A stretch of DNA of 64,000 nt from Escherichia coli. Lineage in GTDB: Bacteria > Pseudomonadota > Gammaproteobacteria > Enterobacterales > Enterobacteriaceae. The position numbers and the translations under genes are program-made. The stretch is taken from NCBI RefSeq assembly GCF_003334765.1, contig NZ_QOWT01000008.1. One strand, 5' to 3'. Below the pieces are notes generated by a model. That model had not been told where the DNA came from. It made no database searches and saw only the letters and a program-made list of their open reading frames with translations. Shown here piece by piece: positions 8,458 to 10,357 of the stretch (position 1 is the first letter of the stretch; every line of letters begins with the position of its first letter).

Positions 8458-8490
8458 TGTCTGTAAATCACGACAATGGGTGGTTTGCCG

Positions 8491-8571
8491 TGTCGCTTTC
8501 TGGCGACACTTAACTCATTGATTTTAATATTATCTAATAAGTTTATCTTAAGTTGTCTCTTTTTAGCGACA
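8491..8571 (+). promoter_or_regulatory. GlrR (sigma54 activator) binding sites upstream of glmY
   Basis: two TGTC-N10-GACA palindromes: tgtcgctttctggcgaca (8491-8508) and tgtctctttttagcgaca (8554-8571). Confidence 0.6.
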
Positions 8572-8660
8572 CAGTGGCTGATTTACATTCAAACAGCGGA
8601 GGAGACATAAACCCCTCAAAGCAACGTATAATCAGTACGTTACCAAACTATTTTCTTTAT

Positions 8661-8680
8661 TGGCACAGTTACTGCATAAT
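8661..8680 (+). promoter_or_regulatory. overlapping sigma54 (-24/-12) and sigma70 (-10) promoters of glmY
   Basis: tGGcacagttacTGCat matches the sigma54 -24 GG / -12 GC spacing; cataat hexamer overlaps its 3' end. Confidence 0.7.
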
Positions 8681-8687
8681 AGTAACC

Positions 8688-8872
8688 AGTGGCTCATTCA
8701 CCGACTTATGTCAGCCCCTTCGGGACGTGCTACATAAAATACGAATGACGCACAACAAGGTGCCTGCCGTCCAACTTCTGATATCAGCGTAGCTATATCA
8801 ACCATCGGGCGAAACGTCGAGTTAGGCACCGCCTTATTCCATAACAAAGCCGGGTAATTCCCGGCTTTGTTG
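8688..8872 (+). ncRNA. glmY: small RNA GlmY
   Basis: sequence beginning agtggctcattcaccgacttatgtcagcccc, ending in terminator aaagccgggtaattcccggctttgttgt; location between purL and glrK. Confidence 0.75.
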
Positions 8873-8929
8873 TATCTGAACTTCCCCTCGGTTAGCATCA
8901 GGCTATTCGCGTCTGACGAGAGTAACACC

Positions 8930-10357
8930 TTGAAACGCTGGCCCGTTTTTCCCCGCTCATTACGACAACTGGTAATGCTGGCATTTTTGCTGATTCTGCT
9001 GCCCCTGTTGGTGCTGGCATGGCAAGCCTGGCAAAGCCTGAATGCGCTTAGCGATCAGGCGGCGCTGGTTAACCGCACTACGCTTATTGATGCCCGGCGC
9101 AGTGAAGCGATGACCAACGCGGCGCTGGAGATGGAGCGTAGTTACCGTCAGTATTGCGTGCTGGACGACCCAACCCTGGCGAAGGTTTATCAAAGCCAGC
9201 GCAAGCGTTACAGCGAAATGCTCGATGCCCACGCAGGCGTGCTGCCGGACGATAAACTCTACCAGGCATTACGTCAGGATTTGCACAATCTGGCTCAACT
9301 TCAGTGTAACAACAGCGGTCCCGATGCTGCCGCCGCCGCACGTCTTGAAGCCTTTGCCAGTGCCAATACCGAAATGGTACAGGCCACGCGCACAGTGGTG
9401 TTCTCTCGTGGGCAGCAGCTTCAGCGTGAAATCGCCGAACGTGGGCAATATTTTGGTTGGCAATCGCTGGTGCTATTTCTGGTGAGTCTGGTAATGGTAC
9501 TGCTTTTCACGCGGATGATTATCGGGCCGGTGAAAAATATCGAGCGCATGATCAACCGTCTGGGGGAAGGGCGTTCTCTGGGCAATAGCGTCTCGTTCAG
9601 TGGACCGAGCGAGTTACGCTCGGTTGGGCAACGTATTCTTTGGTTAAGTGAGCGCCTGTCATGGCTGGAATCCCAACGCCATCAATTTTTAAGACATTTA
9701 TCTCATGAATTAAAAACGCCACTGGCGAGTATGCGCGAGGGCACTGAATTACTGGCTGACCAGGTTGTCGGGCCGCTTACGCCAGAGCAAAAAGAGGTGG
9801 TGAGCATTCTTGATAGCAGCAGCCGCAATTTGCAAAAACTGATCGAACAACTGCTTGATTACAACCGTAAACAGGCGGACAGTGCGGTGGAACTGGAGAA
9901 TGTTGAGTTAGCACCGCTGGTGGAGACAGTGGTTTCTGCTCATAGCCTGCCCGCACGGGCTAAAATGATGCATACCGACGTCGATCTCAAAGCAACAGCT
10001 TGCCTGGCGGAGCCAATGCTGCTGATGAGCGTACTGGATAATCTTTACTCCAATGCGGTGCACTACGGGGCTGAATCCGGTAACATTTGCCTTCGCAGCA
10101 GTTTACATGGTGCGCGGGTTTATATTGATGTCATCAATACAGGCACGCCCATTCCGCAAGAGGAACGCGCCATGATCTTCGAACCCTTTTTTCAGGGAAG
10201 CCACCAGCGAAAAGGGGCGGTGAAGGGCAGCGGTCTGGGATTAAGCATTGCCAGGGATTGTATTCGCCGTATGCAAGGGGAACTGTATCTGGTCGACGAG
10301 AGCGGGCAAGACGTTTGTTTCCGCATTGAATTACCGTCGTCGAAAAACACGAAATAA
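8930..10357 (+). CDS. glrK: two-component sensor histidine kinase GlrK (QseE), 475 aa
   Basis: ORF 8867..10357; HAMP plus HisKA (LSHELKTPLASM) and HATPase regions; probable TTG start at 8930. Confidence 0.85.
   Translation: MKRWPVFPRSLRQLVMLAFLLILLPLLVLAWQAWQSLNALSDQAALVNRTTLIDARRSEAMTNAALEMERSYRQYCVLDDPTLAKVYQSQRKRYSEMLDAHAGVLPDDKLYQALRQDLHNLAQLQCNNSGPDAAAAARLEAFASANTEMVQATRTVVFSRGQQLQREIAERGQYFGWQSLVLFLVSLVMVLLFTRMIIGPVKNIERMINRLGEGRSLGNSVSFSGPSELRSVGQRILWLSERLSWLESQRHQFLRHLSHELKTPLASMREGTELLADQVVGPLTPEQKEVVSILDSSSRNLQKLIEQLLDYNRKQADSAVELENVELAPLVETVVSAHSLPARAKMMHTDVDLKATACLAEPMLLMSVLDNLYSNAVHYGAESGNICLRSSLHGARVYIDVINTGTPIPQEERAMIFEPFFQGSHQRKGAVKGSGLGLSIARDCIRRMQGELYLVDESGQDVCFRIELPSSKNTK

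Follow-up and report, generated by a model that had tools for sequence, protein, structure and literature searches.

What does the spacer between purL and glrK in this Escherichia coli genome encode, and is its regulatory architecture new? A mechanical ORF list places an open frame across it, which an earlier note on this DNA took to be non-coding, reading the spacer as the known GlrK/GlrR-GlmY circuit. We analysed the whole 64 kb stretch that carries the spacer (the window, below). The spacer (8373-8929, 557 nt) is 100% identical to that of E. coli K-12 MG1655, and when 8373-8934 was aligned directly with NC_000913.3 every position was the same. The circuit is thus indeed the known one, since the sequence equals the K-12 glmY locus base for base. 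By megablast, the spacer is single-copy in 5426 of 5426 complete E. coli genomes and 100% identical in the K-12 strains.

The gene neighbourhood gave the same picture. The gene order in NC_000913 is purL (b2557), the 184-nt ncRNA glmY (b4441), glrK, qseG, glrR and glnB, with record coordinates converted as window = 2700028 - record coordinate. This curated order and the TTG start of glrK at 8930 agree with the earlier placement of glmY directly upstream of glrK. The NCBIfam equivalog models for PurL, QseG and GlrR passed above their cut-offs, and glrK/qseE received generic histidine-kinase matches only. At a probability of about 97%, we identify this stretch as the glmY locus of E. coli K-12, complete with the GlrR/IHF sites and the dual sigma54/sigma70 promoter that have been published for it. 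The locus is already known and nothing in it is novel; it is a textbook example that has been studied since about 2008. The same elements have been published for the identical sequence, in line with the earlier description of a recognisable architecture rather than a novelty. The features are collected in Table 1.

Table 1. Features of the purL-glrK spacer and its neighbours, in window coordinates; positions relative to the RNA 5' end (8688) are in brackets.
Feature	Position	Strand	Basis
purL, phosphoribosylformylglycinamidine synthase, upstream neighbour	4485..8372	+	NCBIfam NF003672, 2276 bits vs cut-off 783; b2557
purL intrinsic-terminator-like hairpin, then T-run	8431..8452	+	terminator scan: 8-bp stem, 5 G-C pairs, tail TTTTGTGTCT
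GlrR/QseF site ABS1 (box 1), TGTCTGTAAATCACGACA	8458..8475 (-230..-213)	.	exact TGTC-N10-GACA
GlrR/QseF site ABS2 (box 2), TGTCGCTTTCTGGCGACA	8491..8508 (-197..-180)	.	exact TGTC-N10-GACA
IHF site 1 (distal), AATCAATGAGTTA	8511..8523	-	exact match to WATCARNNNNTTR
GlrR/QseF site ABS3 (box 3), TGTCTCTTTTTAGCGACA	8554..8571 (-134..-117)	.	exact TGTC-N10-GACA
IHF site 2 (proximal), AATCAGTACGTTA	8630..8642	+	exact match to IHF consensus WATCARNNNNTTR
sigma54 -24/-12 element, TGGCACAGTTACTGCA, TGGCAC-AGTTAC-TGCA	8661..8676	+	sole TGGCAC-N6-TGCW match in the 64 kb window
sigma70 -10 hexamer CATAAT	8675..8680 (-13..-8)	+	read from sequence; overlaps TGC of sigma54 -12
glmY primary transcript, 184 nt	8688..8871	+	NC_000913 ncRNA b4441, 2691157-2691340 (-)
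processed regulatory GlmY, 148 nt, two large stem-loops	8688..8835	+	RF00128 match covers exactly the 148-nt span
glmY terminator hairpin, AACAAAGCCGGG-TAATT-CCCGGCTTTGTT	8843..8871	+	last hairpin of MFE fold
qseEGF (glrK) sigma70 promoter region, start about 8905	8870..8905	+	published start; candidate hexamers by eye
glrK/qseE sensor histidine kinase, TTG start at 8930	8930..10357	+	annotated b2556
qseG lipoprotein	10522..11235	+	NF007997, 359 bits vs cut-off 234; curated annotation
glrR/qseF, sigma54-dependent response regulator binding the three boxes	11225..12559	+	NF011695, 982 bits vs cut-off 763; curated annotation

The sigma54 -24/-12 element was found where it had been proposed, with TGGCACAGTTACTGCA at 8661-8676. 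Its GG lies at -26/-25 from the RNA 5' end and is followed by GC in the GG-N10-GC arrangement. A sigma54-like match arose at least once per 64 kb in 39 of 100 shuffled sequences, and the motif alone is not statistically unusual. The motif assigned to glmY by sigma54 ChIP-seq is TTGGCACAGTTACTGCA (PMC4591121). It corresponds to window positions 8660-8676, and the sequence here is identical to it.

The hexamer CATAAT does overlap the 3' end of the sigma54 element, at the TGC of its -12 part, as had been claimed. It is the published -10 of an overlapping sigma70 promoter, and the sigma54 and sigma70 promoters of glmY share one start site (PMC3045617). That the overlapping sigma70 promoter functions has been shown by mutational analysis (PMC3045617, PMC6075780). 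A generic sigma70 scan of 8300-9000 called no promoter, as the hexamer found at the -35 position, TTTCTT, is a poor one, in keeping with the weak sigma70 promoter of the published account. The generic terminator scan of the same region called the purL terminator only; the glmY terminator was missed because its T-run is interrupted. Since the glmY promoter and terminator both fall below the thresholds of simple scans, such scans are uninformative here. The overlapping promoters, the GlrR boxes, the IHF dependence and the sigma54 occupancy have been established experimentally on the identical sequence (PMC3045617, PMC4591121, PMC6075780).

A perfect TATAAT is present at 8627-8632, within a short inverted repeat, AACGTA-N7-TACGTT (8622-8641); the TATAAT overlaps IHF site 2. 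We rejected it as an unsupported extra promoter: GAGACA is separated from it by a 19-bp spacer on the upstream side, and 90 relatives show no conservation of the hexamer at this place. A/T-rich sequence that is there incidentally is the probable explanation.

Next to the purL terminator-like hairpin (8431-8452), which adjoins box 1, lies the cluster of GlrR boxes. TGTC-N10-GACA occurs exactly three times in the window, all within 114 bp (8458-8571) and none elsewhere. The earlier note was right about the presence of these palindromes but counted two instead of three, and box 1 begins at 8458, 3 nt to the left of the span given there (8461-8930). At least three boxes somewhere in 64 kb were obtained in 5 of 100 shuffles, and the count alone is not significant. 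As single-motif counts are weak, we gave weight to how the motifs cluster, to their conserved spacing and to the identity with the characterised locus. Three boxes in 114 bp, together with the recurrent spacing and sigma54 position in about 90 genomes, are far beyond chance. The three motifs are the published GlrR sites, which lie over 100 bp upstream; ABS2 and ABS3 are required by the sigma54 promoter, and ABS1 can be dispensed with (PMC3045617).

Box 3 is flanked by two exact IHF consensus sites, elements absent from the earlier note, and the whole window holds just 11 exact matches to this consensus. Two IHF-like regions on either side of ABS3 have been described, and IHF and the distal IHF site are needed for the sigma54 promoter only (PMC3045617). 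By our assignment, the published distal site probably corresponds to 8511-8523. Activator sites more than 100 bp upstream (three boxes, -230 to -117) together with IHF consensus sites give the layout of an activator-dependent sigma54 promoter. The cognate sigma54-dependent activator is present in the genome, with the GlrR equivalog NF011695 matching at 11225-12559.

The conservation of this layout was followed in relatives. A DNA-pattern scan of a species-representative genome collection for the GlmY 5' motif gave 120 loci, and TGGC-N8-TGC was found no more than 35 nt upstream in 93 of them. The remaining 27 loci also had no GlmY core and, where titles were shown, came from unrelated phyla, except for one Arsenophonus endosymbiont. 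We compared the 91 loci with enough flank. They were chosen for a sigma54-like element no more than 35 nt upstream, and this choice accounts in part for the element being present, but not for its fixed position. The first G of the GG was at -26 in 82 of the 91 loci, at -27 in 6 and at -25 in 3. The spacing between box 1 and box 2 was 32-33 bp (77 of 79 loci), and that between box 2 and box 3 (ABS2-ABS3) was 63 bp (84 of 91). The same promoter layout recurs in about 90 Enterobacterales genomes. CATAAT occupied -13..-8 in 41 of 91 loci, which agrees with the published statement that the sigma70 -10 is kept in only a subset of genera. A glrK homologue was located downstream of GlmY on the same strand in all 82 testable loci, and purL was upstream in 71 of 80.

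In the Arsenophonus endosymbiont the GlmY 5' motif was matched, and simple filters gave one GlrR-like box, no sigma54-like element and no GlmY core. Here a reduced genome may have kept a degenerate copy.

Variation within Escherichia was compared as well. In three E. coli strains (96-98% identity) the boxes, the sigma54 element and CATAAT were unchanged, and the substitutions fell in unassigned spacer; IHF site 1 was altered only at its N4 positions, 8514 and 8516. In a divergent Escherichia genome the changes in box 2 and box 3 were all inside the N10 spacer. E. coli GMF065 carries an IS200/IS605 transposase gene between purL and the glmY regulatory region (positions 1-300 of that locus, approximately window 8373-8450). 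Homology to the window resumes at 8451, therefore all three GlrR boxes are kept. Differences in the first ~25 nt past the stop of purL are also seen in many other E. coli strains.

The RNA itself was identified by an Rfam scan of the whole window at the gathering threshold, the check that the earlier note had set for its own reading. GlmY_tke1 (RF00128) matched at 8688-8835 on the plus strand with 146 bits (gathering threshold 33, E-value 1.5e-32), spanning the full model (positions 1-163 of 163). This E-value is far beyond chance. The match and the curated glmY annotation at 8688-8871 together bear out the GlmY RNA body that had been read from the letters. The match length of 148 nt agrees with the processed GlmY of the literature, where the 184-nt RNA is trimmed at its 3' end into the active 148-nt form (PMC4152352). 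The 184-nt glmY folds with an MFE of -64.2 kcal/mol (z = -4.8) into two long stem-loops and a terminal hairpin. A GlmY terminator had been claimed as well, and the hairpin was found at 8843-8871.

Gathering-level matches elsewhere in the window were ryfA (45779-46082, -), IS128 (46214-46422, -), the iscRS stability element (38295-38404, +), sroE (59250-59341, +) and naRNA4 (37507-37578, +), which are known K-12 features.

We aligned 90 GlmY bodies, and RNAalifold predicted 31 pairs, 7 of them with compensatory changes (e.g. AU:37/CG:37). In this structure 98.4% of cells were paired, compared with 28-43% when the partners were slid by 1-3 columns. Double-change cells numbered 92, compared with 29 ± 4 in shuffles, and the observed covariation score was reached by 0 of 500 shuffles. 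The invariance of the 5' strand of helix 1 carries no weight because it was fixed by the search pattern. The conservation of structure is, like the sequence identity, the motif positions, the RNA family and the synteny, a direct observation of this analysis.

Downstream of the RNA, a separate qseEGF/glrK promoter lies inside the span of the earlier note and is absent from it. The qseEGF genes have their own weak sigma70 promoter, with a start 25 bp upstream of the start codon (PMC6075780). Candidate hexamers, read by eye, are TTGTAT (8870-8875) and TAGCAT (8893-8898). The candidate -35, TTGTAT, shares bases with the end of the glmY terminator stem, and the promoter with its 25-nt leader sits between the glmY terminator and the TTG start (8870-8929). 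Such a compact junction, with only 58 nt from the glmY terminator to the glrK start, would suit a different reading, in which glmY serves chiefly as the 5' leader of an operon glmY-glrK-qseG-glrR and, by read-through, the two-component system is autoregulated from the sigma54 promoter. The interrupted T-run of the terminator, which the generic scan did not call, is in its favour too, and in Proteus mirabilis a glmY-qseE-qseG-qseF operon has been reported (PMC8745638). In K-12, however, reporter fusions and RT-PCR showed the separate sigma70 promoter 25 bp upstream of qseE, no autoregulation and virtually no read-through from glmY (PMC6075780). We therefore regard the operon-leader reading as improbable.

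Less probable again is an additional, undescribed output of the spacer, which could be a second, upstream start from the TATAAT at 8627-8632, transcription that under some conditions passes the weak glmY terminator into glrK in K-12, or a small translated ORF in the GlmY region. We found no positive sign for any of these three candidates.

The reading of the spacer as the glmY locus also has to be weighed against a coding one, in which ORF 8553-8792 (79 aa, TTG start) or the antisense ORF 8698-8928 would be a real protein gene and the RNA and promoters incidental. The mechanical ORF list has the two as open frames, and the stop-free stretch across the glmY start has 83 codons in the window and at least 79 codons in 23 of 91 loci. 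The median stop-free stretch of the relatives is, however, 62 codons. Neither frame has an NCBIfam match, and the curated K-12 record holds no CDS at 8553-8792 or 8698-8928. ORF 8553-8792 would cross GlrR box 3, IHF site 2, the promoter and 105 nt of structured RNA. The length of these 105 nt differs by a non-multiple of 3 in 47 of 89 relatives, which means that no reading frame is conserved. With no family match and frame-breaking indels, we rejected both ORFs as coding; a protein gene here is scarcely conceivable, and the earlier judgement that 8553-8792 is non-coding stands.

Complete E. coli genomes annotated by PGAP list no feature under the glmY spacer, and the ncRNA glmY is annotated only in the curated NC_000913 record. 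Spurious ORFs appear in ORF tracks at glmY because PGAP leaves the ncRNA unannotated.

The chance that the RNA is instead GlmZ, the paralogue of GlmY, or a different Glm clan member is negligible: the first ~150 nt of GlmY and GlmZ resemble each other in the alignment and the two belong to one Rfam clan (CL00011), but clan competition keeps GlmY_tke1, the 3' parts do not align and homology ends past the central stem-loop, and K-12 glmZ is located elsewhere, between aslA and hemY, whereas the copy here lies between purL and glrK and has the b4441 glmY annotation.

From GlmY of K-12 (SroF/Tke1; RF00128; b4441) the RNA of the window shows no difference, as sequence, coordinates and motifs are all the same. 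GlmZ (b4456, clan CL00011), a homologous sRNA, shares the two-stem-loop body of GlmY and, like GlmY, binds RapZ (PMC4152352). In many Enterobacterales it also has the same sigma54/GlrR/IHF promoter layout as glmY, whereas E. coli glmZ has a sigma70 promoter only (PMC3045617). The GlmZ locus differs from the GlmY locus. RNase E, together with RapZ, cleaves GlmZ, which base-pairs with the leader of glmS, whereas GlmY is without the pairing region and acts as a decoy (PMC4152352). Whole-length RNAduplex of GlmY and GlmZ against the glmU-glmS spacer gave meaningless full-length duplexes, no better than shuffles. A 24-nt sliding RNAduplex against the same spacer gave -26.5 kcal/mol for GlmY, mostly from its own terminator hairpin, and -21.8 kcal/mol for GlmZ, with no discrimination between the two. 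The decoy sRNAs CsrB and CsrC resemble GlmY in that they titrate an RNA-binding protein rather than base-pair (PMC4152352). They differ in the way of binding: CsrB has many short GGA motifs for CsrA, whereas GlmY copies the entire fold of one specific sRNA, and the protein it binds is the RNase adaptor RapZ.

Factor binding, the transcription start, 3' processing and the RapZ decoy mechanism are taken from the literature on the same sequence. Primer extension, rpoN, glrR and ihf mutants, mutations of the boxes and of the -10, EMSA, sigma54 ChIP-seq and RapZ binding were all done earlier on the identical sequence. By mimicking GlmZ, GlmY sequesters the RNase E adaptor RapZ, and GlmZ survives and activates glmS (PMC4152352). 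RapZ free of GlcN6P stimulates QseE/QseF and thereby glmY transcription, and GlmY feeds back (PMC7073468).

On the best explanation of this locus, with factor binding, start, processing and decoy role as published, sigma54-RNA polymerase sits at 8661-8676 and is opened by phosphorylated GlrR (QseF) on the three boxes 117-230 bp upstream. IHF bends the DNA in between, at the sites flanking box 3. The weak sigma70 promoter (CATAAT) shares this DNA and the start, 8688, and provides basal expression. The 184-nt transcript stops at the hairpin 8843-8871 and is then trimmed to 148 nt (8688-8835). GlmY encodes no protein and, according to the literature, does not pair with glmS; at low glucosamine-6-phosphate it sequesters RapZ. 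With RapZ sequestered, GlmZ survives and activates glmS translation, and GlmS synthesis goes up. The loop is closed by glrK-qseG-glrR, which drive the glmY promoter and lie directly downstream, behind a weak sigma70 promoter of their own.

The locus illustrates how mechanical ORF tracks place ORFs over genes for non-coding RNA, and how E. coli genomes annotated by PGAP leave glmY out. It also serves as a positive control, in which a real sRNA with an unusual dual promoter was recovered from sequence alone.
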